Below, piece by piece: positions 4,876 to 22,500 of a DNA stretch of 60,218 nt; position 1 is the first letter of the stretch, and each line of letters starts with the position of its first letter. The stretch spans positions 1 through 60,218 of the forward strand of contig DAIUCD010000027.1 in assembly GCA_036846345.1 (NCBI GenBank), in the 5' to 3' direction. The stretch comes from Spirochaetota bacterium. Lineage in GTDB: Bacteria > Spirochaetota > UBA4802 > JAGODF01. The notes below the pieces were generated by a model that saw only the letters and a program-made list of their open reading frames with translations, was not told where the DNA came from and did not search any database. The translations under genes were made by a program, and so were the position numbers.

Positions 4876-5475
4876 TCATTCCCATGGGACCCTGTTCCAG
4901 GGGCTTTCCTCATTTTCCGGATCGAGGAGATCGTTGAAGATATCGTCCAGCTCCTCGTCATAGATATCAGACCTTCCCTCCGACCAGTAAAGATACCCAT
5001 CGAGGAAGCTCTCCCCCATCTCCGCCCAGGACACAAAGGATTCCCTGATGCGCCTGGCGCTTTTTTCTATCCAATCCCAGGCCTCGTCCCGGCTCAGGTA
5101 TTCCGCCCCGGCCCCCCATCGGGCAGCTGTCACGAGCCGGCAGAGATCCCATGCCAGCATGGAGGACGGGTTGTCCTTACCCTCCTCACATTCCTCACGG
5201 TCCCCTTCCTCCAGGAGCCAGCTCAACAGGCCCAGCAAATCCGAGCGCTCCTCCACGCGCCACCACTCCCTTAGCGCTTCCCGGGCATCCTTCATTATCT
5301 CCTCACCGGGCATCCCTCCCTCGAGGATATCATGTTCCTCTCCATTGAGTTCCGTCAGCAGTGCACTCACGGCAAGACCAAATCTCTGTTCCTGAGTAAG
5401 ACCTGAACGCTTCGAATCATCACCCCTTGAATCCATCATCCATCCTCCCTTCCCTCTTGTAGCGGCGTACTGCAT
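4876..5475 (-). CDS. DUF1266-like hypothetical protein (acidic, Trp-rich)
   Basis: 199-aa ORF convergent with lon. Segments such as LAWDLCRLVTAARWGAGAEYLSRDEAWDWIEKSARRIRESFVSWAEMGESFLDGYLYW resemble DUF1266-family proteins from memory. The true start may be an internal Met. Confidence 0.45.
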   Translation of the reverse strand: MQYAATRGKGGWMMDSRGDDSKRSGLTQEQRFGLAVSALLTELNGEEHDILEGGMPGEEIMKDAREALREWWRVEERSDLLGLLSWLLEEGDREECEEGKDNPSSMLAWDLCRLVTAARWGAGAEYLSRDEAWDWIEKSARRIRESFVSWAEMGESFLDGYLYWSEGRSDIYDEELDDIFNDLLDPENEESPWNRVPWE

Positions 5476-5596
5476 GGATCGGCTGCCCCAGCAGGATACA
5501 TGGCAAACCCCCTCAAGGGAATTATCATTGACTTATGCCCTTTCCCTGTATAGACTCTTTAAACCAGAAATCTTCATCCGGGATGGATGCTACCAT

Positions 5597-8170
5597 ATGG
5601 TACGAGTAATTCAACTCTTTCTCCTTATATTCTTAACGACAGCGGCCTTTAACCCTGCCGCAACCGCTACCCCATCAGGGAAGGGGCCCTGCAGTCTGGA
5701 GCTGCCGCCGCAATACTATGAAGACAAGACCGGCTCCCTGTCGATCAACGACATCCTTGCCGGGGATAGAAAGATACTGTTCCGTCCCTCACCGGGAAAA
5801 ACGCCCAATTTCGGGTACACAACCTCGGTCTACTGGCTGAAGTTTACCATAAGGAACTCCGGGGAGGACAACCGAGACTGTTATCTCACCATCCCCTACT
5901 CCCTGATCGATGACATACGGCTCTATCTGCCCCAAGGCAGCAATGATTACGTGGAAAAAAAGTCGGGCCGTCTCTATCCCCGGGAATCCCAGGATTATAA
6001 CAACCGGCATTTCAATTTCCGCGTAAACCTGCCGCCGAAAGCCCGGGAGGTCTGTTATCTGCGGGTGATGAGCAAGGATTCCCTTCCAGTCCCCCTGGAG
6101 CTCTGGAGCCATAGCAGCTTCATCCGTGAGGACCGGAGCGACCAGTTCCTTATGGGATGCTATTACGGGATCATCCTGATCATCATCCTCTACAACCTCT
6201 TTATCATGCTCACGATCCGGGACATCAATTATCTCTATTATCTCCTCTGCCTGATCAGCATGCACCTGCTCTTCCAGATGGGCATCAACGGATTGAGCAG
6301 GCAATTATTCGGGACAGACTCGATCTGGTGGTCCCGGGAATCCATTGCCTTTTTTTTCAGTCTCGGATGCCTCTTTCTCATAAAGTTCAGCCAGAATTTT
6401 CTCAATACCCGTAAGACCAACCCCCGACTGCATCTGGTTCTTACAATTGTCATGGGATGGGCCGGTCTGGAGGCGCTCATTTCCCTGTTTCTCGATTATC
6501 ACTGGGCCATACAGTCCGCCGTTCTGATGGGCCAATTCTGCGGTGCCACGGTATGGTTCTCGGGTTTCATCAGTCTGATCAAGGGCAACCGGGCGGCGCG
6601 CTTTTTCCTGCTGGCCTGGACCTCCCTCATCTTCAGTGGCATTCTCTACTCCCTCAAGGTCTGGGGTCTGATCCCCAGCAACATCGTCACGGAGTACGCC
6701 TGGCAGGTCGGTTCGGTGATCCAGGCCGTTCTCCTGGGGATTGCCCTGGGAGACAACATCAACATCCTTCGAAGGGATATGTTCAACGCCCAGACCGCGG
6801 CCCTGGAAAAGGAGAAGGCGGCCCGGGAGGCCCAGGAGCGTTTCAGTGAAACGCTGGAAAAACTCGTTGAGGAGCGGACCAACGATCTCAATGTGGCTCT
6901 TCAGGAGCTTCGCAACCGGGAGCGCCGGATACAGAACGAACTCGACCTGGCATCGGACATTCAACAGGGCATCCTTCCCCCCACCCCCCTCAGCTTCAAC
7001 GGGATCAACATCGTGGCTCATTACAACTCCTTCGAGAAAATCGGCGGCGATTTCTACGATATCTTCCCCATGAAGGGGGGACATCTCTGTGTGCTTCTCG
7101 CCGATGCGTCGGGCCACGGAATCCCGGCGGCCTTCGTTACGGCCCTGGCCAAAATCAGTTTTTCCGAAGCCACCCAGCAGTATCTTTTCCCCCGGGACAT
7201 ACTGAAACAGGCCAACGAGCAGCTCATCAAGGTGGTCAAGACCCAGGAGTACCTGACGGTCTTTCTGGTCGTCATCAGCCCCTCATACGAGGTCTTCTAT
7301 TCCAACGCCTCGCATCAACGGGCCTTCGTTCTCAGAAAGCGGAGCGGTGATGTGGAGGAGTGGGATACCGACGGTCTCTTTGTGGGCGCCGTGCTGGAAG
7401 CCAACGAACGCTACGAGGACAAGCAGGATTTCCTCGATTTCGGGGACCGTGTGATACTCTACACCGACGGTCTGATCGAGGCGCGCAGCAGCTCAGGCGA
7501 GGAGTTCGGCCTTTCTCGTCTCAAAGACCTTCTCAGGGAAACCGGCGGTCTCCCCATAGAACAGGCACGGGAGTCCATCGTCGAGGGATGGCGCGGGTTT
7601 ATCAGTGAATCCAATCTCCGGGACGACGTCTCCTTCCTCCTTCTGGAAGTGGACCCCTCTTACCGGGAGCTGCTGGAATACAAGAATCGGGGTCTCGAGG
7701 AACTGTTTCAAAACCACATCGACGAGGCCATAAGAAATCTTTCGGAAGCCCTCAAGATCGACAACCGGGACGCCAAGGTCCATCACCTGCTGGGGAAATG
7801 CTATTTCCGGGAAAAGAACTACGGGGAATCCATCGAACACATCAACGCCTACCTGGCCCAGAACCAGGAGGATGCGGACGCCTGGCACATGCTGGCCGCC
7901 TGCCAGTTCAACATCAGGGACTTCAGCGCCGCGCTTACCTCGGCACAAAAGGCCTGCTCCATAAGGCAGAACTTCAACAAGGCGCTGCTCATCTGGGGGC
8001 TGTCATTGAAAAAGCTGGACCGTTTTCAAGAATCGAAATCCATATGGGCACAGATACTCCGGACAGAACCGGACAACAGCGTGGCCGCCGCAGAGATGCT
8101 GATGCTGGAACAGCACAAACCGGCAGGGGACAATCCCGAAAACACCACAAAAGGGAATGGGATTCAGTAG
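5597..8170 (+). CDS. 7TM-DISM-type membrane receptor fused to a PP2C/SpoIIE-family serine phosphatase and C-terminal TPR repeats
   Basis: The ORF is open from 5474. The likely start is the ATG at 5597 (MVRVIQLFLLIFLTTAAF… signal-like segment). It has a periplasmic beta-rich region, then 7 hydrophobic helices, a coiled coil, a SpoIIE/PP2C signature (…GGDFYDIF…LLADASGHGIPAA…DGL…) and TPR-like repeats at the C-terminus. Confidence 0.75.
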   Translation: MVRVIQLFLLIFLTTAAFNPAATATPSGKGPCSLELPPQYYEDKTGSLSINDILAGDRKILFRPSPGKTPNFGYTTSVYWLKFTIRNSGEDNRDCYLTIPYSLIDDIRLYLPQGSNDYVEKKSGRLYPRESQDYNNRHFNFRVNLPPKAREVCYLRVMSKDSLPVPLELWSHSSFIREDRSDQFLMGCYYGIILIIILYNLFIMLTIRDINYLYYLLCLISMHLLFQMGINGLSRQLFGTDSIWWSRESIAFFFSLGCLFLIKFSQNFLNTRKTNPRLHLVLTIVMGWAGLEALISLFLDYHWAIQSAVLMGQFCGATVWFSGFISLIKGNRAARFFLLAWTSLIFSGILYSLKVWGLIPSNIVTEYAWQVGSVIQAVLLGIALGDNINILRRDMFNAQTAALEKEKAAREAQERFSETLEKLVEERTNDLNVALQELRNRERRIQNELDLASDIQQGILPPTPLSFNGINIVAHYNSFEKIGGDFYDIFPMKGGHLCVLLADASGHGIPAAFVTALAKISFSEATQQYLFPRDILKQANEQLIKVVKTQEYLTVFLVVISPSYEVFYSNASHQRAFVLRKRSGDVEEWDTDGLFVGAVLEANERYEDKQDFLDFGDRVILYTDGLIEARSSSGEEFGLSRLKDLLRETGGLPIEQARESIVEGWRGFISESNLRDDVSFLLLEVDPSYRELLEYKNRGLEELFQNHIDEAIRNLSEALKIDNRDAKVHHLLGKCYFREKNYGESIEHINAYLAQNQEDADAWHMLAACQFNIRDFSAALTSAQKACSIRQNFNKALLIWGLSLKKLDRFQESKSIWAQILRTEPDNSVAAAEMLMLEQHKPAGDNPENTTKGNGIQ

Positions 8171-8697
8171 AGCTTATATCCCTTTCGAGCCGTAAGGACA
8201 CCCTCCCGCTTTATTTTATCCGGGATATCCACCATGGCCCGTTTGGCGGTGAAGCCGCTGAACTCCAGGGAGAGCTTAAGGCGCAGCATATCCCCGCTCA
8301 TCTCCAGTATGGTAAAATGCCCCTGAGCCTTTTCCGTCTCAATGCTTCCCACCTGGCCGCCCCGGGCGTACCAGATCTCCACGCCCTCTTCCCCGGCGGA
8401 ATACTCCTTACCGGTCGTCAGGCTTTTAGGCAGGGTGATGTTGAAGTTTTCGAAAATATACTCCGTACGGAAGTACAGGGAGCTCTGAAAATAACTCTTG
8501 ATCTCCCGCCCCTTTTCGGTCTCGGCGAGGGTTGCTCCGAACTGGTCGAAGGTGGGACTGGTTACGTACTCAAAACCGACGTGATTGTGTCCGGAACCGC
8601 ATGAGAACAAAAGAAGTAAAACCGCGGCAAGGCCCAGCAGGTGCGAAATCCTACCGCTTCTGTGTTTAACGACGCTACTTGATGATCTTGTTTTCAA
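8164..8697 (-). CDS. Lipoprotein (signal peptide + lipobox LLFSC), unknown function
   Basis: 177 aa. N-terminal Arg/Ser-rich n-region, hydrophobic h-region and a Cys lipobox. It overlaps the upstream giant gene's 3' end by 23 nt (8675–8697), which suggests co-transcription. Confidence 0.5.
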   Translation of the reverse strand: MKTRSSSSVVKHRSGRISHLLGLAAVLLLLFSCGSGHNHVGFEYVTSPTFDQFGATLAETEKGREIKSYFQSSLYFRTEYIFENFNITLPKSLTTGKEYSAGEEGVEIWYARGGQVGSIETEKAQGHFTILEMSGDMLRLKLSLEFSGFTAKRAMVDIPDKIKREGVLTARKGYKLY

Positions 8698-11600
8698 CCT
8701 TTACCTCCCAGAGGACGATGTCAGGCAGTTTCAGATTCAGGGAATCCAGGAATTCCCCAACCTTGTTCCTGTCGAGCAGCGTGGGGTCGCTCTCCAAGCG
8801 GAACTTGGAGGAAGTCACATAACTGTTCAGCTTCTCGAAGAGGCGGTTTTTCAGCAGGTTCTGCCACTCCAGAGATCCCCGCTTCTCGAAGTAATCATAG
8901 AAGGCGAACTTGTCCTTGAAAGTCGGGAGTTCCACCTGATCGATTTTCCATTTAGGAAGAGTCACATGGGCCCCGGCGGAAACGGTTTCCCGGGATTTGG
9001 TTATGGTATCCCGAATGGCGTTGACGAGAAAATTCCGCACGCCGGATTCGTTTTCCAGGAAGAAGACCAGCTCCTCCATATTGTTGAACTCCGGCGCCTT
9101 CACGAATTTTTCTATGTACTGATCCTTGGTCATGTTCTGTTCCCGGGCGCGGTCACCGGTGCCGTCGCCGTCCAGGATGTCCCGAATCACCAGGGAATAT
9201 TCCCGCCGGAACTGGAAGGTGTTGCTGGAGGGATTGCGCGCCAGCATCCCCAGCGCATTCACGGCATCCATCAGCGAGTCGATGGAGGGGTTCTCATAAC
9301 CCCCGCTGTCCAGGATCTTCTTCTCCACGCCCAGGACCACCTTTTTATAGTCCTCCCTTGCCTCGATGTCCTTCAGCAGGTCCGCCAGAACCCCCTCGTA
9401 TCGATACACATCACCCTCCTTTTCCAAAACCTTGAGGAGCACCAGACCCGCCCAGAGCCGGGCCGGATTGAGATAGTTGGTGATGCGGAAGGGATCCTGA
9501 AAGTACCTGGCGTCAAAGTCGGGATGATTGAAGCAATGCAGAGGGTGGCTCTTTTCCTCGATGAGGGCGTGATAGTCCGCCGCCGAATCCTTCAGCGAAT
9601 TGATCTTGAAGATAGGATACCCCAGCAGTATGCCGATGGAGATGATTTCATAGGGTTTGCAGAGATTGGGTACCTCGAAGGTCTCCACGCTGATGTTGGG
9701 CTGGGCCAACTCGCGTTTCTTGTAATGGTCCATGCGCTCGGGAAGATCGTTGACGGCACCCTCCCCGGGATCATCGCCCCCCTCGTAGGTGTCGATGGGG
9801 AAGTTCGTGACGGTCCGGTAATACTCCATCGACTCAAGACCAGTGGGATCGATGTATATGTAGGGACGGGAATAGCCGTCCAGTTTTTCCAGGAGCTTCT
9901 TGAGGGGGATTTTTTTCTCGTCAAGCATCTGCTTGATGGAGATGTTCTCGAAGTTAAAACCCTCGAAGCGGGAGTGAATGATCTTGAAGATTTTCTTCCT
10001 TATCTTCTCTATGTTGATCTTGAGTATGCTCGCCTCGCTGAGGTTGTAGCCGTCCTCCATCGTGGCGCCCTCTGTTCCGTACAGGACCTGTTTGATCTCC
10101 TCCAGGGACTTCTCCAGGAGATTCCCGTACTGGCTCTGAATAAGCTCCTTCACTTCAGCACCGGACATTTCCAGCACCGATAAGCCCTCGGTGGCGATCA
10201 GGTAAGTCTCGATGAACTGTTCCTTGTCGTCCTCACGGTCCATCTGCACGAAATCAATATCGTTGCAGAGATCCTCGATGGAAAGCCGCGAGTAGAAGTA
10301 GCGCTCCAGGAACGTATCGATCTCCCCCGCGTTGATGAGATAGAAATAGAGCGGGTTCTTCTTCTCCAGGAGGTCGAACTTGTCCTTCTCGATGTCCTCC
10401 TTCATCTGATTTAACAGGGCCACCACCTTGTCCTTGAGTATGTTAACCTCGATGTTCTTCAGATTGAAGAGAAGCGCCTTGAAATCCCGGACGAAGGATT
10501 CCGCCGAGGTGAGCATGGCCTCGAAGGTGAGCTGGCTGAAGTTGAACTGGGCCATCTCGATGAGGGCCTGGGGCAGGGAAGTGTCGGAGAGCCCACCGGA
10601 CTCCACCATCTCCACGAGCTTTTCCATCTCCTCCGTTGAGTAGCGGGCCAGCGCCACGCGCTCTTTGTAGTATTTCTTCTGATAGAGTTCCAGCTTTTCA
10701 AGGAGCAGGTTGATGACAGCTTCCGCGAAGAGGAACCCCTTCTGAGGATCTTTAATGAACTTGTGAATCTCCGCCGTCAAAACGGAGCGCATCTTTTCCA
10801 GCTCCAGCTGATAGCGCTTCTCCATGCGGGTGAGGAGATTGCGCTTGATCTTCTCCAGTTCCTCCTTGCCGTAGTCCCGGAGTATGCTCTCCATGACCAT
10901 CACGACGCCCCGGGGATCCCCCTTCTGAACGGCCCCCTCAATCTTTTTCTGATAGGAACGGAATTCCGTATCGGTGTCCATCTTGTAATCCGGGTACATG
11001 CGCTCGAAGATGAGCCGGCAGTTGAGCCTCAGGGCTCGGACCAGGCCCCGGTTCAGGTCGCCCATGGTCTCCAGGAGGAGGCGGGATTCCACGTTCTTTA
11101 GGAACGCAGCGGTCATCTTCACCGCGGTGATCTTGTAGCCCATCTCCTTGAGCCGGGGAACCGGATAGATGACGCGGGAGATCCCGAAGGAGTTATAGGC
11201 GGCCTTGCGGCGAGAATTTTCGCTCTTGGGCAGATAGATGGAGGCGCGGGTGGAATCGTTGACCATACGCTCCTCGATGGCTCCCCCAACGGTGGAGGCG
11301 ACAAAAGTGGAGATGAACTGTCCAGTCAATTCCTGAACCTGATCCCGTCCCTGCAGGGAGTTGCCGGCCATGTTTTCCACGTCCAGCAGATAGAGCATGC
11401 CGTCGTCAAAGACGCGGTCCGGCACCTCCACCTCCCTCCCCGAAGGATATCGGGCCCGGAAGCTGTTGCCGCTCATGAAGTAATCGATCTCCTTCAGGGC
11501 CGCGTAGGCATTGGCCCTGGCGTTTCGGTTGTAAACCACCCGCTTGAAGGCCGAGGGGAGGACCAGGATGCCATAGATCCGGGGTGCCGGCCAGTAATCC

Positions 11601-12508
11601 TTGAAGATGTCCCTGACCGTGGCAGCCAGGTCCAGGATCATTCCGTTGCCCGTACCCCCCACTATGGAGCAGGTGATAAAGATGGAGATCTGCCCCTTGC
11701 GCTTGAAGTGCCGCACCCGGAAGCTGAAGGGACGGTTCTCGAAACGGGAACCGCTGATCTCGAAATAGTGCCCCTTCTCATCGGAGGGGAAATTATCAAT
11801 GGCCACCTTCCCCGTAATATGGGGACAGAGCAGCGCCCTGGTCGGCTGATCGGGTTCCAATGCCACGATGGCATGATCCTGCGGGATCTTTTCCGAAAAA
11901 TAATACCGGTCCACCCCCCTCCTGGCGGTAAACTGTATCACCTCATCCTTCTTGTCCTGCTCCTCCTTGATGTCCAGGAGCTGGAAATACTTCGGATCGT
12001 CCGAAAGGGTGGAAAGCCGGTCGCGCTCCTTGATCAGGGCGTCCCGTATGCGCGCCTCGTTGTCGAAATAGGCCAGGCGGCCCAGGGGGCGCGTCTGATT
12101 GGCGCCCTGTCCGGCACGGGTGGAAACATCGTAGACATCGGGATTGGGAAGCCAGTCGAAGCAGGGATCGTTCTTGTATTTGTCCCGAAGGTAATCCAGG
12201 GAAAGGTCCGGAGGTGTGGGGGAGGAGATATAGAGCATCCTCTTTTCCTCCTGAAAGAACTGGTCGGAGGGAAACCGGTAGAATCCCCCCTTGCCCTCAA
12301 TGCTCGTCTCGATGTCGGTGGTGTCGATGCCCACCCAGCGCATGTACCGGTAGGCCTCCGAGGGCATGCTGGATTCGATCCATTTCTTGGCGGCCAGCAC
12401 TCCTTTCATACCGGAACCGCCCACACCGATAATGATGGATTTCCTTACGGTGGGTTTGTCATCCTTGATGACCCTCTGTATGGAACCGTGGAGATCGTCC
12501 TTGCCCAT
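8675..12508 (-). CDS. Giant FtsZ/tubulin-superfamily GTPase-domain protein with a long alpha-helical (coiled-coil-rich) C-terminal extension
   Basis: 1277 aa. There is a T1-like glycine loop (SIIIGVGGSGMKGVLAA) and a T4 tubulin-signature-like loop in the FtsZ context (IFITCSIVGGTGNGMILDLA, compared with FtsZ FITAGMGGGTGTG and tubulin GGGTGSGMG). A possible T7-like segment is YLLDVENMAGN. The remaining ~800 residues are charged and helical. A 4-nt gap separates it from the upstream gene and a 23-nt overlap joins it to the downstream lipoprotein. Confidence 0.7.
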   Translation of the reverse strand: MGKDDLHGSIQRVIKDDKPTVRKSIIIGVGGSGMKGVLAAKKWIESSMPSEAYRYMRWVGIDTTDIETSIEGKGGFYRFPSDQFFQEEKRMLYISSPTPPDLSLDYLRDKYKNDPCFDWLPNPDVYDVSTRAGQGANQTRPLGRLAYFDNEARIRDALIKERDRLSTLSDDPKYFQLLDIKEEQDKKDEVIQFTARRGVDRYYFSEKIPQDHAIVALEPDQPTRALLCPHITGKVAIDNFPSDEKGHYFEISGSRFENRPFSFRVRHFKRKGQISIFITCSIVGGTGNGMILDLAATVRDIFKDYWPAPRIYGILVLPSAFKRVVYNRNARANAYAALKEIDYFMSGNSFRARYPSGREVEVPDRVFDDGMLYLLDVENMAGNSLQGRDQVQELTGQFISTFVASTVGGAIEERMVNDSTRASIYLPKSENSRRKAAYNSFGISRVIYPVPRLKEMGYKITAVKMTAAFLKNVESRLLLETMGDLNRGLVRALRLNCRLIFERMYPDYKMDTDTEFRSYQKKIEGAVQKGDPRGVVMVMESILRDYGKEELEKIKRNLLTRMEKRYQLELEKMRSVLTAEIHKFIKDPQKGFLFAEAVINLLLEKLELYQKKYYKERVALARYSTEEMEKLVEMVESGGLSDTSLPQALIEMAQFNFSQLTFEAMLTSAESFVRDFKALLFNLKNIEVNILKDKVVALLNQMKEDIEKDKFDLLEKKNPLYFYLINAGEIDTFLERYFYSRLSIEDLCNDIDFVQMDREDDKEQFIETYLIATEGLSVLEMSGAEVKELIQSQYGNLLEKSLEEIKQVLYGTEGATMEDGYNLSEASILKINIEKIRKKIFKIIHSRFEGFNFENISIKQMLDEKKIPLKKLLEKLDGYSRPYIYIDPTGLESMEYYRTVTNFPIDTYEGGDDPGEGAVNDLPERMDHYKKRELAQPNISVETFEVPNLCKPYEIISIGILLGYPIFKINSLKDSAADYHALIEEKSHPLHCFNHPDFDARYFQDPFRITNYLNPARLWAGLVLLKVLEKEGDVYRYEGVLADLLKDIEAREDYKKVVLGVEKKILDSGGYENPSIDSLMDAVNALGMLARNPSSNTFQFRREYSLVIRDILDGDGTGDRAREQNMTKDQYIEKFVKAPEFNNMEELVFFLENESGVRNFLVNAIRDTITKSRETVSAGAHVTLPKWKIDQVELPTFKDKFAFYDYFEKRGSLEWQNLLKNRLFEKLNSYVTSSKFRLESDPTLLDRNKVGEFLDSLNLKLPDIVLWEVKVENKIIK

Positions 12509-12512
12509 GGGA

Positions 12513-13397
12513 TTACCCCGTCGTGAACGGATCGATCATCGGGTAGAGACCGTCGTCCGTGGGTGCCCCCGTATCGTATCCGGGATAGATTTTATACAGC
12601 CGAATGAGAAAGTTCTTCTCCACCTTGGGAATGTTGGCCTTGGTCTTCACCTCATAGTCCTGTGTAAAGAGATGGAACTCGAAGTAGCCCCGGGTGAACT
12701 TGCCGTCCTGGTTGAGCCGGTCGCCCACCCGGAACCTGACCGGGTTTTTGGGCTCCAGGGAAGGGAAGGTGGGATCCCCCGCCTCGTCCGGCTGCCGCCT
12801 TACATAAATTCTCTCGCGGGATCCCATCTCCCTGAAACCCTCCAGGCCGGGATAGTAGATGAGGGTCTTGCCGTCCCGCCGCAGGTCCAGCTGATATTCT
12901 TCCACGATGATGTCCGGCATCTCATAAATGTCCCTGTCCCTCTGCCCCTCGATGATGCGGATGAAAACGCTGAGATGATTGTCCATGATTTCAGTGGAGA
13001 AGGTCTTGATGTTACCCTCCGTCTGGCCGATGGTGATGAGTTTTTCCAGAACGTGCTCCTGGGCCAGGGAAAACTTGAAGATCAGCCCGGGATCGGGGAG
13101 TTCCTTGGGTGTGACCTTCCCCTGCACGGCAGGGCGGGCAGGCGTGGGTGCCGCTGCGGGTTTTTCCTCCGCAGGCATCGCCTTGCTCTTACCCGGCATG
13201 ATTTTCTTTCGTATGGCGTGAAATCCCGTACTCAGCTTCCGCTGAAGCACCACGACGATAATCAGAAGAACGATGACAAAGATCAGCGCGAAAACCAGGT
13301 ACTGATAGAAATCGATTTTCTTCTCCAGTTCGTAAATTCTGGGATCTATGTGCGTCATCTGGAAAAAACGGTGTAACAGCTGAATCATATCCGCCAC
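12513..13397 (-). CDS. Single-pass membrane protein with a Pro/Ala-rich linker and a C-terminal globular domain (ZipA-like architecture)
   Basis: 294 aa. Short cytoplasmic N-terminus, one TM helix (YLVFALIFVIVLLIIVVVL), a basic Pro/Ala-rich linker (…AEEKPAAAPTPARPAVQGKVTPKELPDPG…) and a ~190-aa C-terminal domain. Its stop lies 4 nt before the start of the FtsZ/tubulin-like gene. Confidence 0.65.
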   Translation of the reverse strand: MADMIQLLHRFFQMTHIDPRIYELEKKIDFYQYLVFALIFVIVLLIIVVVLQRKLSTGFHAIRKKIMPGKSKAMPAEEKPAAAPTPARPAVQGKVTPKELPDPGLIFKFSLAQEHVLEKLITIGQTEGNIKTFSTEIMDNHLSVFIRIIEGQRDRDIYEMPDIIVEEYQLDLRRDGKTLIYYPGLEGFREMGSRERIYVRRQPDEAGDPTFPSLEPKNPVRFRVGDRLNQDGKFTRGYFEFHLFTQDYEVKTKANIPKVEKNFLIRLYKIYPGYDTGAPTDDGLYPMIDPFTTG

Positions 13398-13448
13398 TCC
13401 TCTTTATATTGGACCGTCACGAAAACCGGAAGCCTTTCTGATTTCATT

Positions 13449-14795
13449 TCAGAGCTGTAGGGCCCGGACGAAAGTATCCGTGGACCCGAAATAGGCTATA
13501 CCGTCCACGATGACCGGTTCCCCGTTGACGTTTCCGTCCGTTGAAAACTTAAAGATCATTTTGCCCGTCCTGACATCCAGCCCGTAAAAGTGATTGTCTT
13601 CTGCCCCGAAGCATATCGTATTTCCCTCGACAAGCGCCTGGGTGCGGATCTTCGCCCCGGTTTTATGAGCCCAGACCTGCTTGCCCGCATGATTGAGACA
13701 ATAGAAGTTCCCATTGTCCGCACCGAAGAAAAAATATTCCTCGTTACCCATCAAATGGGAGATAATACCGCTGTATACCGGTGCCTTTACGATAAAGACC
13801 CAGCGTACGGCCCCGCTCTCCCGGTGAAGGGAAAAGACGCACCCGTCGATGGACGCGGCAGTGACCGAATCCCCCTTCTGGGATATGCAGGGTTTCACCC
13901 GGACAGCTTCATTGGCGGGATAGTCCCAGATCATGTCCACCTTGCTCCCGCCGTAATTGAGGGCGTAGAGATGCCGGTCCTCGGTACCTACATAGATAAC
14001 ACCGGAACTGAGCGCGGGGCTGGAGACCGTTCCGCTGAGGGCGTACTGCCAGAGAATCTTCCCGATGGCCTTGTTGGACTCATCCTGATAGTAGGCTTCG
14101 TAGGCATTGAGCCCCTTGAGGGCCGCCACGATGAGGATCTTCCCAGTGGCGATGGGCTCAGTGAGAATACCGCTGCCCGCCGCACCCTGCCAGAGCACCT
14201 CCGGCTTGAGCGGAGCCCCACCCTCGCGGTGAGCCGCTAATCCCAGCCGAACAGCGTAGATGTTGCCTTCCCGCGTGGTGCAGTAGAGCACGTCCCCGGC
14301 AATGGCCGGCCTTCGTATGATGGAACCCGTAAGCTTGAACTGAACCACCGGTTTCAGCCCGTCTGCTTCGGATCTCAGCACATGCACCTCTCCCGTCTTG
14401 TTGGCAGCGGCCACCAGGGTCAGCCCTTCAGGGGTCTGCACCCGAACCAGCCCCGCCACGATGGGAGCCTTTGTTTTAAAACTGCCGATCTCCCTGCCGC
14501 TGCCTTCCCGCGGCTCTTCAGAAGAGTCCCCCGATTCCAGGTCGCTCAGGGTGTTCGAACTGGAATCCAGGCTTCTCAGTGAAAAGCTCTCATTGACCGC
14601 CAAATCCTTCTTGGGATCGAAGGGCTTGAGGGGTTTGACATGTTTATTCGGGCTCATCAGGCTATCCGTACCGGTATCAAGTTTCCTTTTTATACTATGT
14701 TCCATCTCAGCCGTCAAGCTGAAAATCCCGAAGACGGAAAAAGGCACCCTGTTCGGAGGAAGTGCCTCTGCCCCTTGATGCCGCTTCTTTTTCAT
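13449..14795 (-). CDS. PQQ-repeat (BamB-like) beta-propeller protein
   Basis: The six-frame ORF extends to 15548, but its N-terminal 251 codons are low-complexity and overlap a well-supported plus-strand amidohydrolase. I place the start at the ATG at 14795 (MKKKRHQG…). The C-terminal ~400 aa carry repeated …G.VYVG…D..LYAL… PQQ-type blades. Confidence 0.65.
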   Translation of the reverse strand: MKKKRHQGAEALPPNRVPFSVFGIFSLTAEMEHSIKRKLDTGTDSLMSPNKHVKPLKPFDPKKDLAVNESFSLRSLDSSSNTLSDLESGDSSEEPREGSGREIGSFKTKAPIVAGLVRVQTPEGLTLVAAANKTGEVHVLRSEADGLKPVVQFKLTGSIIRRPAIAGDVLYCTTREGNIYAVRLGLAAHREGGAPLKPEVLWQGAAGSGILTEPIATGKILIVAALKGLNAYEAYYQDESNKAIGKILWQYALSGTVSSPALSSGVIYVGTEDRHLYALNYGGSKVDMIWDYPANEAVRVKPCISQKGDSVTAASIDGCVFSLHRESGAVRWVFIVKAPVYSGIISHLMGNEEYFFFGADNGNFYCLNHAGKQVWAHKTGAKIRTQALVEGNTICFGAEDNHFYGLDVRTGKMIFKFSTDGNVNGEPVIVDGIAYFGSTDTFVRALQL

Positions 14796-14813
14796 TGACC
14801 CCGGGAAGGGGAT

Positions 14814-15698
14814 GTGGTATCTCTTGACAGGGGGGATCCATTTTCCCTTATCGCGTGGTGGACCATGATTATAGATTTTCACACTCATATTTTTCCCGGT
14901 GATGTGCGGCGGCAGGAGGTCTTCCGCTCGGACCCGGCCTTTCAAGGCCTCTACGGAAGCGAGAAGGCCCGCCTTTCGGATCACGGGGGACTGCTTTCCC
15001 TCATGGACCGGGAGGGGGTGGACCGTTCCGTCTGCATGGGTTTCCCCTGGCAGGAGGAGGAGGCCTGCGAGCTTCACAACGGCTACCTGCTGCGGGCCCG
15101 TGAAGAAACCGGAGGGCGACTCATCCCCTTCGGAAGCGTCCCCCGGACGAGGGGAGCCCCCCTGAGACGATGGATCGAGGGGATGAAACAGCAGGGATTC
15201 TCCGGGATCGGCGAGATGGCCTTCTACGACGGGGGTCTCGACAGAAGAAGCGCCCTCTTCCTGGAAGAGGTCCTGCTCATTGCCGGCGGGCAGAAACTGC
15301 CGATCTGCCTCCATGTCAACGAGCCGGTGGGGCATCCCTACCCCGGCAAGTACGAACCCTCCCTGGGAGCGCTCTACGAAATCATCACCCGGGCGCCCGA
15401 AACCACTATCATCCTCTCCCACTGGGGCGGGGGACTTCCCTTCTACGAACTCATGCCGGAGGTAAAGCGCAATTTCGGGAATGTCTGCTACGACACGGCG
15501 GCCTCCCCCTATCTCTACGGCGACGGGATTTACGGGATAGCCGGTCAAATAATTTCCTTTCAGAGGATTCTTTTCGGAAGCGACGCCCCCCTCCTGAAGC
15601 CAGGCCGGTATATCGAGTCCATTCGTGCCGCTTTTCCCGTCCCTGAGGAACAGGAGGCCGTACTCGGGGGCAACGCCCTTCGATTGCTGGGCCTATAA
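14814..15698 (+). CDS. Amidohydrolase-family (TIM-barrel metal-dependent hydrolase) protein
   Basis: 294 aa. MIIDFHTHIFP… (HxH metal ligands), then …LHVNE…, ILSHWGGG and LFGSDAP motifs typical of amidohydrolase-2-type enzymes. The start may instead be the internal ATG at 14865. Confidence 0.75.
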   Translation: MVSLDRGDPFSLIAWWTMIIDFHTHIFPGDVRRQEVFRSDPAFQGLYGSEKARLSDHGGLLSLMDREGVDRSVCMGFPWQEEEACELHNGYLLRAREETGGRLIPFGSVPRTRGAPLRRWIEGMKQQGFSGIGEMAFYDGGLDRRSALFLEEVLLIAGGQKLPICLHVNEPVGHPYPGKYEPSLGALYEIITRAPETTIILSHWGGGLPFYELMPEVKRNFGNVCYDTAASPYLYGDGIYGIAGQIISFQRILFGSDAPLLKPGRYIESIRAAFPVPEEQEAVLGGNALRLLGL

Positions 15699-17661: not shown

Positions 17662-20232
17662 CTAACGCGACACGGATTGGAAAACATCCTCCATCTTGTT
17701 TTTAAAAAATCCGTATCGTCCCCGCATCGTCTCCCCCGAGAGTATGATCACCTTCGACCCCCTCGGAAAGACATAGGATTCCAAAACGGTTCTGTGATCA
17801 TCGCCGGCAATGCTCCAGAAGTATTCCAGATCGTCCTTTTTGCCCCATTTCTCCTTGATGATCTTCTTCCCCATCCGTTTCAGCCAGATCTCGCAGATGC
17901 CCCTGGCATCCTTTCCGTCCGGGGAATAGACGGCAACCTGTATCATGGCTTTGCCGTCGGGTGTCATGAACTGCCGAGTGATCCCCTTTTCCCGGTCCCG
18001 CTGACTGACCCGCTTCTCTCTCCACCCGGCAGGAAGGTCAAAGCGCAGCCCTTCCTCCATAATCCTCATTGTTTCGCCCGGGCTTCCCTCCTTCCTGCCG
18101 CTCCCCTTCCTCCAGATGTTCTTATGATAATGCAGCGTCAGTCGGGTAACGGCCTTTTTGTCTACCATTTCAAAATTCTTTTCATCCATTTTCCATTGAG
18201 AGACATCCACCGAAAGCCTTTTTTCGATCTTCCGATTCAACTCCCTCACCTCGTCCCTGGAGGGATAATTGCTGAGGGCCAGATGGTTTTTCCTGTAGAA
18301 CTCAACGAGATAAAAGATGCGGGACAGAGCCAAGCTGATCTTCCCTGCCGCAAACTTTCGTGTTTTGTACTCCCGCTGTATCCGCTTCCTGTCGAATCCG
18401 GGAACCAGCGAAAGAAGGCTTTTCTCCCGAAGGGTCTTCTCCATCTCCAGCGATACATCCCCTTTTTCCGCCTGTTTATTGAGACCGTTGAAAACAATCA
18501 GGTAACCCGCGAAGGCCTCCTCAGCGTAATTCATACTTTCGTGAAGCTTTTCATAATCCCTCAGACCGGAGAGCAGGATTTCCAGCTCGTACTGCGCCAG
18601 ACGATGCCCCGCTCTGTTATCTCTGACTTTTTTCAGCCGGGCTTCCTTGGCATTAGCCCGCTGCAAAGCCCGCGCCAGCCCGCTTATGCGCTGGCGGGAT
18701 TTCTTCACCGCCACCGTCATGGCGGCCCTGGTATTCTTCATCTCCCGCACCTGATCGGGCTGGAGGAAGGGATACTCGTCCCGCTCGGCATAGGGCAATT
18801 CTAGCAGAAGGCTGTAGAGCTGAGAATTCCGCAGGGTATAGAGCGCCAGTCGGTTTTTCTTCTCCTCTCTGTCCAGATCCGCAGCTTCCAGCGTATCCCT
18901 CATGATACGCTCCAGATATTCCACCGAATGGCTGGCGGATTCCGCCATGATTCTAAAATCACCCATGACCGCGTTTCCGTCCCCTTTCCGTGTGAGGGAA
19001 ACCATTCTCAGAAAAGCCATTGAACGATCCCGATAGCTTTCCGCAAGCTTGCGGCGCCCGTCCAGGAGACCCCGGGCCACCTGGATCTCCCGCTGGAAAG
19101 CGGACGGTTTCTTCATGAGTCCCTTGCCCTCGCCCTCTTTTTCGGCATTCCCCCCGGGCTTTTCATCCGTCTCCAGTCTCCGGAACATCTCCTCCGAGGG
19201 TTTCATCTGCTTCCTGATGAGATTCTGCAGACGCCGGTCTATCTCCTGGAAGTATTCCTCATTCTCTCTTCCCTGAATCCCCAGGAGTGCCTTCTTCCGT
19301 GTCTGGTCCATGGTTTTCAATAAGGGGGTGATGGGCGGTATGCGGGGTATCTCTGGAGCATCCCTTTTGTCACCCTCCCCTCCCTGGGAATCCGCCTCCT
19401 TCTGCGGGTAGGCCATACCGTATTCCTCAATTAACGCACCGAAGGTGCGGGCATCCAGGGACAGGGGGTTTTTCATAAAATGCGCCGTTTCCGCCGGACT
19501 GTATTTCATGCGGGACTCTTCCATCCAGCGCCCTATCGCGAGACATCCCTGCAACCGCATTTCCATACGGCGGCGTATCTTTTTCCAGACCGCACATCGT
19601 TCCAGCAGGGCGGAATCGCCCACCCCCTTGAGCCGATTCTTAATACGCTCCCGGCCCCTGATGGTTTTAACGCTTCCTTCCTTGTCCGTGGCCGCAGGGA
19701 CTCCGCGTTCCCCCTCCGCCAGGTTCATGGCGCGAACCATCGTCATCTCGGCTGCAAGAAGGCGAAGCCTCGGCAGGGAAACCTCCTCCTGCATCAGGTA
19801 CTTCGCTGTCTCGCCGTCCCCCCGGCCGAATCGCTCCTTCACCAGCCCTGCGGCTGCCAACTCCACTGATCGGGCAGCCGCCTCGACGGACTCACGGGAT
19901 TCCCCTTCCGCCAGGACATGCTCCAGACAGATCGAATCCATGAGGCTCTTTGGGGAGGGAGCATCCCCCTCGCTGGATTCCCCTTTTCCCGCCGGACCGC
20001 TTTCCCCCAATTTCATCAGGCGCAGGATTTCCCTGGTTCTTTCCAGATCCCGATCCAGGGCGGCCATTAAACGAGGGTCCATATCGGTACGACCCGCCAG
20101 GACTTTCCTCTCCCTGGCCAGTTCCGCTTCCCGCTGCTTCCACCACTCAAAGCGGGACTGATTGAGACCGTAGGAGGAGACCAGAAACAGGTTCATCAGG
20201 ATGATCGCGACGGCGAGCCTAAGACTTTTCAT
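17662..20232 (-). CDS. Large secreted coiled-coil-rich hypothetical protein
   Basis: The ORF is open to 20286. The likely start is at 20232 (MKSLRLAVAIILMNLFLVSSYG signal peptide). 856 aa, Arg/Glu-rich helical repeats, no recognisable enzymatic motif. Confidence 0.65.
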   Translation of the reverse strand: MKSLRLAVAIILMNLFLVSSYGLNQSRFEWWKQREAELARERKVLAGRTDMDPRLMAALDRDLERTREILRLMKLGESGPAGKGESSEGDAPSPKSLMDSICLEHVLAEGESRESVEAAARSVELAAAGLVKERFGRGDGETAKYLMQEEVSLPRLRLLAAEMTMVRAMNLAEGERGVPAATDKEGSVKTIRGRERIKNRLKGVGDSALLERCAVWKKIRRRMEMRLQGCLAIGRWMEESRMKYSPAETAHFMKNPLSLDARTFGALIEEYGMAYPQKEADSQGGEGDKRDAPEIPRIPPITPLLKTMDQTRKKALLGIQGRENEEYFQEIDRRLQNLIRKQMKPSEEMFRRLETDEKPGGNAEKEGEGKGLMKKPSAFQREIQVARGLLDGRRKLAESYRDRSMAFLRMVSLTRKGDGNAVMGDFRIMAESASHSVEYLERIMRDTLEAADLDREEKKNRLALYTLRNSQLYSLLLELPYAERDEYPFLQPDQVREMKNTRAAMTVAVKKSRQRISGLARALQRANAKEARLKKVRDNRAGHRLAQYELEILLSGLRDYEKLHESMNYAEEAFAGYLIVFNGLNKQAEKGDVSLEMEKTLREKSLLSLVPGFDRKRIQREYKTRKFAAGKISLALSRIFYLVEFYRKNHLALSNYPSRDEVRELNRKIEKRLSVDVSQWKMDEKNFEMVDKKAVTRLTLHYHKNIWRKGSGRKEGSPGETMRIMEEGLRFDLPAGWREKRVSQRDREKGITRQFMTPDGKAMIQVAVYSPDGKDARGICEIWLKRMGKKIIKEKWGKKDDLEYFWSIAGDDHRTVLESYVFPRGSKVIILSGETMRGRYGFFKNKMEDVFQSVSR

Positions 20233-20340
20233 AGATTCCTCTCCTGCATCAACGGCCCGGCGGGGTGCCGGGCTCTGAGTCTTCATTTATCTTATCGATA
20301 AGAGAGGAATTTTAGATAAGCCTTTTTAGGGCAGAAGGGG

Positions 20341-22500
20341 TCATTCCGTTTTAAAGACGATGAGGGTCGCGTCGTTTTGGAGCTTAACCCCCTTGGTATA
20401 TGCGCTGAAGTCACTGTATATTTTCCGAGTCAGCACGGCAGGGGTGTCCTCCAGGTTCAGCCGAATAATATCCTTGATCCTTCCGGGCGTGTAGCTGATG
20501 CCCTCCTCGTTTACGGCCGAGGAAACACCATCGGAATAGAGAAAGCCGACACAGCTCTTTCCCGCCTTGAAGGATTTGACTTCATAGGAAAAATTTTTCT
20601 CGATGCCGATGGGAATCCCCTTCGTGTCGAGCTCTATGAAGTTTTCCCTTTCGGGATCGTAGAAGGTGAGAGGGTTGAAGGCGGCGCTGGAATATCTCAG
20701 CTCACCCTGTGCGGGGGAATAGGTGAAATAGAGAGCCTGGGCGTATTTATCCGTAAATCGTGAGGAGGCAAGGACCCAGTTCATGGCGTTGAGCATCTTT
20801 TCCGGGGAATCGTATTTCTCGGGCTGAGTGTGGAGCACCGTGTAGAGCTGGAGGAGCAGCAGTGCGGAGTCTATACCGTGATCGGCAACATCACACATGA
20901 AAATCCCGAGTGAACGGTTCTCGAGGACGTGAGAGTCGAAATAGTCTCCTCCGTGTTCCGAGTTATTGACATAAAAGGAGCTGATGCGCATTCCGCTGAT
21001 GCTTTTCAGCTCTCCGGGGATGAGTCTTTTTTTGACCCCGGTGATGACCATCTTGTCGTGCTTAACCACCTGTGTGGCCTTGACCTCTTCCAGCATAATG
21101 GAGTTCGACAGGGAGAGTTCGAACTGAATTCGGTACACCTCCAGGACGGACAGCAGGTCGGTAGAATACTGTCGCCGGTTCTTCAGCCGGCCCAGCAGAA
21201 GAAAGCCTATCATCACCTTCTCAGGGTTGAAGAAGGGGAGCAATACACGGATCTCCGCGTTCTTCAGGATATCCAGGAGCTTATCCCTATAGCCCTGAAG
21301 CCTGTCGTCTGTAAAAAAGAGGGAGATGTCAATCACCCTGCCGTATTCCCTGAGGCAGCCAACCAGGTCGCTCTCCTCACCCGCATCCTCGATTTCCATC
21401 CTCCCGCCGTAACCGTAGCTGTACCCATAGGATCGCTCATCGGCATTGAAGAGGTAGAAAGCCGCCTGGGTGACCCCGAAACGGGGTTCCAGATTCTGTA
21501 TCGTCTTTTCGAAGAACAAATCCCAGTATTGTCCCTGGCCTTCGGAATCCCCCAGCTGAGTTATCTCCTTGAAAAACTCGTTGACGTTTCTCTCAAATTC
21601 AAGATATCCGCGCCGGAAGAACCTCTCGATGACGGGCCTGAAGAATCGATAGAAAAGGAAAAGATAGAGAAAGAGTATGATGGCCACAGCCACAGCCGGG
21701 ACGTTCTGACCGGTTCCCTGCAGGCTGCGAGCATAGACCAGGAAATAATATGAAGGCATCGTCAAAAGCGTCAGGATCACCAGCCAGTAAGTCTTGCGAA
21801 TATAGTATTGACGGAAATCCACATTCCTCTCATCCGCCACGGCGTGATTGACAAAAGCTAGAAAAATCGAGCCCGAAAGGGCAAGGGACACGTATTTATA
21901 CGCATGTACGGAAAAGAGATTCGGCAGGATTATTGCCAACGTGACGAAGAAGATGACAATGATGTTGTACCCCGTAAAGAGGAAGAAAATCTGGTTAGCA
22001 AAGCTCTCATTGCGCAGATACTTGGATTTGTAGAGGAGGATACCGTCGGCCCCGAGGTAGTAGAGACCCAGGGTGGAAAAATAGACATAGGCGAGATCCC
22101 CCCATTTGTACTGAAGATAATTCTGCACCGTGACATCACCGATGACCAGATCCGTAAAAACCGTGATCCCCAGCAGGGCCGCCCCCGGAATGCCCGTGAG
22201 AAGAACGATCCAGAGAGGCGTCCCCTTTTCCCAGCGCGGAAAGATCTGGGCGAGATGGAAGGAGAGCTGAATCACCAGAAGAAGCAATCCCCAGAAACCT
22301 CGGTTGACCAGGGTGTTCCATTCCGGCGTCGGGCCGAGGATCTTGATCATCTGCATCACATAGACCAGCGATACCGCAAGACAGAGCAGGGCGAAGAGCC
22401 GGTTGACGGCGAAACGGGCCCTCTTAAACAGATTGAAGGAGCCGTAATACAGGGAGAGGACAAGACCGGTACCGGTCAGAAGGATATCGAGATAATTCAA
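20341..22500 (-). CDS. Multi-pass membrane sensor fused to GAF-like and PP2C/SpoIIE-family phosphatase domains
   Basis: 719 aa. About 8 N-terminal hydrophobic helices, a central GAF-like region, and a C-terminal SpoIIE signature …HGGDYFDSHVL…GIFMCDVADHGIDSALLL…DGV…. Confidence 0.8.
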   Translation of the reverse strand: MNYLDILLTGTGLVLSLYYGSFNLFKRARFAVNRLFALLCLAVSLVYVMQMIKILGPTPEWNTLVNRGFWGLLLLVIQLSFHLAQIFPRWEKGTPLWIVLLTGIPGAALLGITVFTDLVIGDVTVQNYLQYKWGDLAYVYFSTLGLYYLGADGILLYKSKYLRNESFANQIFFLFTGYNIIVIFFVTLAIILPNLFSVHAYKYVSLALSGSIFLAFVNHAVADERNVDFRQYYIRKTYWLVILTLLTMPSYYFLVYARSLQGTGQNVPAVAVAIILFLYLFLFYRFFRPVIERFFRRGYLEFERNVNEFFKEITQLGDSEGQGQYWDLFFEKTIQNLEPRFGVTQAAFYLFNADERSYGYSYGYGGRMEIEDAGEESDLVGCLREYGRVIDISLFFTDDRLQGYRDKLLDILKNAEIRVLLPFFNPEKVMIGFLLLGRLKNRRQYSTDLLSVLEVYRIQFELSLSNSIMLEEVKATQVVKHDKMVITGVKKRLIPGELKSISGMRISSFYVNNSEHGGDYFDSHVLENRSLGIFMCDVADHGIDSALLLLQLYTVLHTQPEKYDSPEKMLNAMNWVLASSRFTDKYAQALYFTYSPAQGELRYSSAAFNPLTFYDPERENFIELDTKGIPIGIEKNFSYEVKSFKAGKSCVGFLYSDGVSSAVNEEGISYTPGRIKDIIRLNLEDTPAVLTRKIYSDFSAYTKGVKLQNDATLIVFKTE

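Follow-up and report, generated by a model that had tools for sequence, protein, structure and literature searches.

A membrane-bound FHA-like protein encoded beside an FtsZl1 tubulin-like GTPase in Spirochaetota: a candidate adaptor

Introduction

The Tubulin_2 proteins of Pfam are the FtsZl1 family of Makarova and Koonin (PMC2875224). They form the most divergent branch of the tubulin/FtsZ superfamily and have been treated by sequence and genome context (PMC2875224, PMC9871819). Most described FtsZl1 operons include a vWA-domain protein, and lineage-specific transmembrane (TM) proteins are common in them (PMC2875224). FHA-domain proteins occur in 3 of 56 FtsZl1 neighbourhoods and Ser/Thr kinases in 8 (PMC2875224, supplement). 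In Pirellula staleyi (Psta_0487) and Blastopirellula marina, COG1716 FHA proteins are encoded directly upstream of FtsZl1 (PMC2875224, Additional file 5), while the Halorhabdus locus encodes a PQQ propeller fused to a Ser/Thr kinase (PMC2875224, supplement). Here we describe a locus in a 60,218-nucleotide stretch of a Spirochaetota genome (contig DAIUCD010000027.1; "the window" below), where the gene directly upstream of FtsZl1 encodes a small membrane protein. We refer to this protein, the product of the gene at 12513–13388 on the minus strand, as the anchor, and to the anchor gene, the FtsZl1 gene and the gene that precedes both as the cassette.

A first-pass annotation of the locus had likened the anchor to ZipA in its layout and had proposed it as a dedicated membrane anchor for the tubulin-like protein. 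Our analysis gives roughly even support for and against a modified form of that proposal, in which the anchor is the membrane-bound, FHA-like adaptor of a Leptospirales-type FtsZl1 module. The anchor is a conserved single-pass protein, its globular domain is FHA-like and unlike that of ZipA, and its gene is closely linked to FtsZl1 in most, and not all, of the genomes that carry it.

Results

The anchor is a conserved gene

The open reading frame (ORF) that ends at position 12513 had been read as encoding 294 aa. The ORF is real and lies on the minus strand, as described, and its start has to be moved. The GTG at 13397 chosen by the ORF finder overlaps a Shine-Dalgarno sequence, AGAGGAG, which we read at 13397–13403 (minus strand), 8 nt upstream of an ATG at 13388–13386. 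Because of this arrangement, and because the identical database protein (P0001) has 291 aa, the ATG at 13388 is the likely start. The gene therefore runs from 12513 to 13388 and encodes 291 aa, in keeping with the homologue set. Residue numbers throughout are those of the 294-aa version.

We found 171 homologues of the anchor at E≤1e-3, mostly 270–305 aa long, with a mean column identity of 53–59% in two alignments (A1 and A2). The ratio of nonsynonymous to synonymous substitution rates (dN/dS) is 0.02–0.24 where it can be estimated, most pairs of cassette copies being saturated in dS. Given these homologues and this selection, the anchor is a real gene and no chance ORF. Its stop codon (TAA, 12515–12513) is followed by the four nucleotides TCCC (12509–12512, minus strand) and then by the ATG of the 1277-aa tubulin-like gene at 12508, just as the first-pass annotation had it. 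Homologous junctions agree with this reading, and such a spacer fits an operon with translational coupling. Scans for promoters and terminators gave counts at the level of shuffled sequence.

The anchor has one TM helix and a ZipA-like layout

Hydropathy analysis identified exactly one strongly hydrophobic segment in each of 25 homologues examined. In the window's anchor this segment is residues 33–51 (YLVFALIFVIVLLIIVVVL; 13245–13301, minus strand), with a mean Kyte-Doolittle value of 3.6, and the second-best segment stays below 1, which bears out the single TM helix proposed earlier. Ahead of the helix lie 28 aa of N-terminal tail (residues 4–32; 13302–13388, minus strand), whose net charge is about −1 and which include a conserved DPRIYELEK-type motif. 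Behind it follows a basic, variable and disordered linker (residues 52–96; 13110–13244, minus strand), also as proposed. Across the family the linker is 39–63 aa long (median 47) and about 24% K+R (K 17%, A 11%, P 10%, S 9%, R 7%), and it is not conserved in either alignment.

An AlphaFold2 model built from 106 sequences (mean predicted local distance difference test score, pLDDT, 88.4; predicted template-modelling score 0.70) is consistent with this layout. It has helices at residues 2–15 and 19–64, the second of which contains the TM segment, so that the N-terminal tail is modelled as a helical extension of the TM helix. The linker has a pLDDT of 51–56. The remainder of the protein is a conserved all-beta domain (residues 97–294; 12516–13109, minus strand), predicted to be cytoplasmic. 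About 195 aa of it (residues ~97–290) have a pLDDT mostly above 90, in good agreement with the globular domain of ~190 aa that had been described.

The first-pass annotation placed the short N-terminus in the cytoplasm, and this is probably wrong. The stretch on the C-terminal side of the TM helix equal in length to the N-terminal tail has a net charge of about +5.4. Windows of equal length contain a mean of 7.8 K+R behind the helix vs 3.3 ahead of it, and in 103 of 106 homologues the C-terminal flank is the more basic one. By the positive-inside rule, the anchor is probably oriented N-out/C-in: the N-terminal tail would lie outside the cytoplasm and the globular domain inside, which is also the arrangement of ZipA. 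The corrected orientation is what makes the anchor idea possible, since with a cytoplasmic N-terminus the globular domain would end up in the periplasm. We infer the sidedness from the charge bias, the fold of the domain described below and the fact that the partners carry no signal peptides.

In the opposite orientation the N-terminal tail would be cytoplasmic and the beta domain periplasmic, where it would act with OmpA-like lipoproteins or peptidoglycan and not with FtsZl1. OmpA-type lipoproteins do adjoin the cassette in several loci, and the N-terminal tail is itself conserved. However, the positive-inside bias holds in nearly every homologue, FHA-like folds are cytoplasmic modules, and neither partner has an export signal. 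The hydrophobic segment also begins ~30 residues into the protein, with no cleavage-type motif after it. We therefore regard an inverted anchor as very improbable.

The globular domain is FHA-like

The C-terminal domain has the beta-sandwich of FHA domains (the SMAD-FHA fold) and not the alpha/beta fold of the C-terminal domain of ZipA. We assign residues ~100–228 to a divergent FHA-like core with moderate confidence. Beyond this core, the domain carries a long, highly conserved beta-hairpin (residues 236–272) and a tail with the pattern PGYD...GLYPMxDPF. The lack of sequence similarity to ZipA noted in the first-pass annotation is confirmed by the absence of a Pfam ZipA_C match, and homology to ZipA is ruled out by sequence and by fold alike. 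What survives of the comparison is the architecture and the predicted topology; the fold is a different one, and FtsZl1 lacks the FtsZ-style tail to which ZipA binds.

The relationship to FHA domains is likewise undetectable at the sequence level. Pfam returned no match for the whole anchor at E≤0.1, nor for residues 95–294 at E≤10, ZipA_C and FHA included. A profile search of the PDB gave only noise from TM and low-complexity sequence, with no FHA protein, and hhalign against the FHA protein GarA gave a probability of 0.2%. The search of NCBIfam yielded just a sub-threshold chance match of the TM region to MacP (E 0.09; 13 bits vs a 45-bit cut-off).

FHA domains work in the cytoplasm. The invariant residues of the anchor family map to the loops of the FHA ligand face, in a mapping made by secondary-structure order and not by residue-level superposition, but their chemistry is non-canonical. 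An invariant glycine (G124) is followed by a nearly invariant glutamine (Q125) where FHA domains have the phosphate-binding arginine. S134, T135, E136 and H141 are invariant, and the spacing from Ser to His is 7, vs 3 in the canonical SxxH. In place of the FHA Asn-Gly the family has D175-G176, with nearly invariant R173 and R174 alongside.

Given this fold, the anchor could be a regulator and not a tether: its FHA-like domain would recognise a peptide signal at the membrane, phosphorylated or otherwise, and control the assembly or GTPase activity of FtsZl1, with tethering incidental or absent. Elsewhere, FtsZl1 neighbourhoods repeatedly include Ser/Thr kinases, FHA proteins and a kinase-fused PQQ propeller, and two SpoIIE/PP2C membrane phosphatases are encoded nearby in the window. 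Residues on the three loops that make up the ligand face are conserved even in copies of the anchor encoded without FtsZl1 (see below), which points to a ligand other than FtsZl1. Against this, the arginine that contacts phosphothreonine is replaced by Q125 and the SxxH spacing is not kept, and neither the cassette nor the scanned ORFs of the window showed a Hanks kinase. In other genomes the phosphatases do not share synteny with the cassette, which leaves a link between them and the FHA-like protein unsupported. On balance we consider a purely regulatory role unlikely, though it deserves to be taken seriously.

The anchor gene is linked to FtsZl1

The 1277-aa protein encoded downstream of the anchor (8675–12508, minus strand) matches Pfam Tubulin_2 (E 7e-45) and has the two parts that define the FtsZl1 core, an FtsZ/tubulin-like GTPase domain at the N-terminus followed by a long, helical C-terminal portion. 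Its orthologues are collinear, with almost no indels. The GTPase domain contains a beta-rich insert of ~83 aa (residues ~188–270; about 11700–11945 in the window, minus strand), which the core clade and P0195 have and P0196–P0200 lack. We considered this insert as an anchor-binding element and rejected it, since P0196 has an anchor and no insert and P0195 has an insert and no anchor. A literature search for a connection of FtsZl1 with Leptospira or with FHA domains returned nothing relevant.

To survey the linkage from the anchor side, we scanned one genome per species and obtained 61 loci. FtsZl1 lies directly downstream of the anchor, on the same strand, in 50 of them. The remaining 11 comprise 10 loci with the anchor alone and one contig that ends at the anchor. 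In 37 of the 48 junctions measured, the two genes are separated by no more than 9 nt or share a 4-nt overlap. All but one of the loci (60/61) are labelled Spirochaetota, Leptospirales, Leptospiraceae or Leptospira or, in three cases, have no taxon label; the other, L037, was deposited as Caldithrix sp.

Searches seeded with FtsZl1 gave the same gene order. In all 10 metagenome loci recovered in this way, the anchor is directly upstream of FtsZl1 and the propeller gene, the first gene of the cassette, precedes the anchor. This order extends to L062, where FtsZl1 is 44% identical. In this JGI contig an ambiguous base or frameshift divides the anchor orthologue (5108–6011) into two called genes, of 73 and 240 aa; the break is more likely to be an error of assembly than the mark of a pseudogene. 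Overall, the anchor precedes FtsZl1 in 11 of the 12 FtsZl1-seeded loci with at least 44% identity. More distant FtsZl1 genes (L063, L064) have the usual vWA gene upstream instead.

The anchor family is small and has so far turned up almost exclusively in Leptospirales-type spirochaetes. An exhaustive profile search of 1.84 billion representatives found 33 clusters at 50% identity. Large weak matches (P0237, P0241–P0243) were considered as remote homologues or Rosetta-stone fusions; they proved to be polytopic membrane proteins or DUF11/DUF7507 repeat proteins and were set aside as spurious. Named FtsZl1 orthologues in the protein database are limited to L. ognonensis, L. ryugenii and Leptospira sp. 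GIMC2001, in addition to metagenome-assembled genomes (MAGs). At least three isolate genomes carry the cassette, two of them from named species (L. ognonensis and L. ryugenii) and the third from Leptospira sp. GIMC2001. The linkage between anchor and FtsZl1 is strong, but it is not obligate.

Some species retain the anchor without FtsZl1

Nine Leptospira species encode the anchor alone (L050–L057 and L060), as does one further locus, L036. The nine are L. vanthielii, L. yanagawae, L. abararensis, L. soteropolitanensis, L. jelokensis, L. ilyithenensis, L. kemamanensis, L. chreensis and 'Mane'. In each, the anchor occupies the chromosomal position that the cassette has in other Leptospira, and the propeller and FtsZl1 genes are absent from the locus. 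Flanks were compared in detail for L051, L053 and L055; the neighbouring genes match those of cassette loci upstream in all three and downstream in L051 and L053. As the named database orthologues of FtsZl1 come from other species and from MAGs, this suggests that the nine species lack FtsZl1 altogether. The anchor-only genes are intact, with a dN/dS of 0.06–0.24, compared to 0.02–0.16 in the few cassette pairs that can be measured.

We compared the 59 positions that are at least 90% conserved in 44 cassette copies with the corresponding positions in 10 anchor-only copies. Thirty-four are kept, including the FHA-face residues G124, G128, S134, E136, H141, R173 and R174 as well as the core of the hairpin. 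Fifteen are lost, including the DIYxLP loop, R147, R194, R196, D204, G207, R227 and the C-terminal DP. The DIYxLP loop (residues 150–166) is deleted outright in the Leptospira anchor-only copies inspected (L051 and L055). A pattern of this kind is expected if one surface of the domain served the lost partners and another serves something else.

Several observations weigh against the anchor being an adaptor for FtsZl1. The anchor-only copies are clearly under purifying selection, and hence the anchor has a function that, at least in part, does not depend on FtsZl1. The word "dedicated" in the first-pass annotation cannot be maintained in its strict sense, since nine species keep the anchor with no FtsZl1 at the locus. 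Conversely, FtsZl1 occurs without the anchor. L078, whose FtsZl1 is 45% identical, has propeller and FtsZl1 genes and no anchor, and L076 and L077 (37% identity) have FtsZl1 alone, with neither anchor nor propeller. To the question raised at the outset, whether orthologous tubulin-like genes always carry this neighbour, the answer is no, although most of the closer ones do. In addition, a disordered tail or linker of the FtsZ kind, to which ZipA, FtsA and SepF bind, is missing from the FtsZl1 orthologues, and in PMC2875224 and PMC9871819 we found no experimental function, filament formation or partner for FtsZl1/Tubulin_2.

The existence of both anchor-only loci under selection and anchor-less FtsZl1 loci would be accounted for if the anchor were an independent membrane protein, acting in the same envelope process as FtsZl1 and co-regulated with it, with no contact between the two. 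We consider this improbable. The gene order is fixed, and the junctions are mostly 1–9 nt or overlapping, across FtsZl1 identities of 44% to 100%. Furthermore, anchor-only copies have lost specific, otherwise invariant surface positions together with an entire loop, as would be expected if a contact with a partner had been lost, and they have a higher dN/dS than cassette copies.

The constant element of the first cassette gene is a short motif

The gene upstream of the anchor was listed as an ORF of 699 aa (13449–15548, minus strand), which is over-extended. The N-termini of its orthologues set the start at the ATG at 14657, giving a protein of 402 aa (13449–14657, minus strand). The false N-terminal part of the longer ORF overlaps a divergently transcribed Amidohydro_2 gene (14814–15698, plus strand). 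The 402-aa protein is a PQQ/BamB-type beta-propeller with Pfam matches to PQQ_2 and Beta-prop_ACSF4. It has no signal peptide and no hydrophobic N-terminal segment, and is therefore predicted to be cytoplasmic.

The propeller protein begins with a linear motif of ~25 aa (MSPNKHVKPLKPFDPKKDLAVNESF; 14583–14657, minus strand), for which the consensus is NPYVKPLKAFDPKKDLxVNESF. A regular-expression scan found the motif in 44 sequences, namely 38 propeller proteins, all of which start with it, and 6 small ORFs. Cassette loci that lack a propeller (L042, L044, L045, L047, L048 and L049) have, directly upstream of the anchor, an ORF of 83–143 aa that starts with the motif. These small proteins have an acidic low-complexity tail, and all 5 copies inspected in full end in (I/V)DL. 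Since the propeller can be replaced by a small motif-bearing ORF, the constant element of the first gene is the short linear motif, which is plausible as a docking peptide. No motif ORF was found in the three anchor-only loci checked (L036, L051 and L055).

Surroundings of the cassette

The window is ordinary chromosome, with genes for ClpX, Lon, PFK and PEPCK. An anti-phage defence system was considered and rejected, as no cassette protein has a PADLOC match and the surroundings are housekeeping genes. No fourth conserved cassette gene was found, and the genes downstream are clade-specific. In the window the downstream gene (8164–8697, minus strand) encodes a predicted lipoprotein of 177 aa with the lipobox LFSC. 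Its reading frame starts at a TTG and shares its first 23 nt with the end of FtsZl1; the protein has no Pfam match and no homologue in other cassette loci. A convergent gene for an OmpA-type lipoprotein of ~170 aa takes this place in L062, L078 and 8 genome loci.

The SpoIIE/PP2C phosphatase-domain membrane proteins mentioned above flank the cassette region at 5474–8170 (plus strand) and 20341–22500 (minus strand), and one of the two carries 7TMR-DISM and TPR domains. An ORF of 874 aa at 17662–20286 (minus strand) has no Pfam match; it is charged, probably helical, and has one N-terminal hydrophobic segment.

Discussion

Taken together, our data are compatible with an adaptor model. The anchor would be a bitopic inner-membrane protein, with a short acidic N-terminal tail outside, a TM helix, a basic disordered tether of ~47 aa, and a cytoplasmic domain of ~195 aa in which the divergent FHA-like beta-sandwich is extended by the conserved hairpin and tail. 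It would be the middle product of a three-gene Leptospirales-type operon encoding the motif/propeller protein, the anchor and FtsZl1. In this operon the anchor would keep FtsZl1 at the membrane on its cytoplasmic side, whether by direct contact or by way of the motif-bearing protein, through surfaces of the FHA-like domain that bind proteins or peptides. Direct tethering appears to be the most likely mechanism, with about as much to be said for it as against it; every physical contact in the model is one that we infer.

More tentatively, the cassette may be a self-contained, kinase-free membrane cytoskeletal module in which the FHA-like domain has been repurposed as a phosphorylation-independent tether. 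In this version, which is possible and somewhat doubtful, a partner-specific surface, made up of the DIYxLP and EPDxAGDPTF loops together with the DPF tail at the C-terminus, would hold FtsZl1 or the N-terminal motif, and the retained FHA face would hold a second, FtsZl1-independent ligand.

If this version is true, the anchor would be the first membrane tether to be defined for a protein of the FtsZl1 family and would represent a new class of tether for the tubulin superfamily. The known set of tubulin-family tethers (FtsA, ZipA and SepF) would extend to an FHA-like fold. The cassette, with its membrane component, its short linear motif and its natural "knock-outs", the lineages that have the anchor alone or FtsZl1 without it, also offers a handle on where and how FtsZl1 acts.

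Comparison with known systems

ZipA is the FtsZ tether of Gammaproteobacteria, whereas the anchor is a protein of Spirochaetota. Both are bitopic with a predicted N-out/C-in orientation, a charged or basic flexible linker that contains proline, and a C-terminal cytoplasmic globular domain. Each is encoded next to, and presumably works with, a GTPase of the tubulin superfamily. The anchor differs in having an FHA-like domain with no ZipA_C sequence match, and in a partner, FtsZl1, that has neither an FtsZ-type C-terminal peptide nor a disordered linker. The linker of ZipA is also much longer than the ~47 aa of the anchor.

Other membrane complexes use FHA or FHA-like domains as cytoplasmic adaptors, among them those of FhaB/FipA (Rv0019c), YscD, the N-terminal domains of EssC/YukB and the Fha protein of type VI secretion systems. 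None of these has a sequence relationship to the anchor, and their domain order and partners are different. Just one paper claims that an FHA protein (FipA) tethers FtsZ (PMC2797604); it has been retracted, and we do not rely on it as a precedent. The retracted paper is still cited by later reviews.

The general FtsZl1 operons, composed of vWA and FtsZl1 genes with or without a GTPase, a Ser/Thr kinase and OmpA, share with the spirochaete cassette the FtsZl1 core, TM proteins and, in some loci, OmpA-type lipoproteins nearby. They normally have a vWA protein directly upstream of FtsZl1, whereas the spirochaete cassette has the TM-FHA-like protein there, preceded by the motif/propeller protein. 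In the window the cassette encodes neither a vWA protein nor a further GTPase.

A close parallel is with the Planctomycetes, where an FHA-type protein is likewise encoded directly upstream of FtsZl1 on the same strand. Those FHA domains are recognisable by sequence (COG1716), one of the proteins is fused to a diguanylate phosphodiesterase, and the FtsZl1 partners at these loci are annotated in the published table as Ser/Thr protein kinases. In contrast, the spirochaete anchor has no sequence-level FHA signal and no canonical arginine, is held by a TM anchor and belongs to a cassette without a kinase. The recurrence of FHA and propeller neighbours of FtsZl1 in other lineages provides independent support for the FHA-like fold assignment. 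By this comparison, the spirochaete cassette looks like a kinase-free, membrane-anchored version of a recurring theme of FtsZl1, FHA and propeller proteins.

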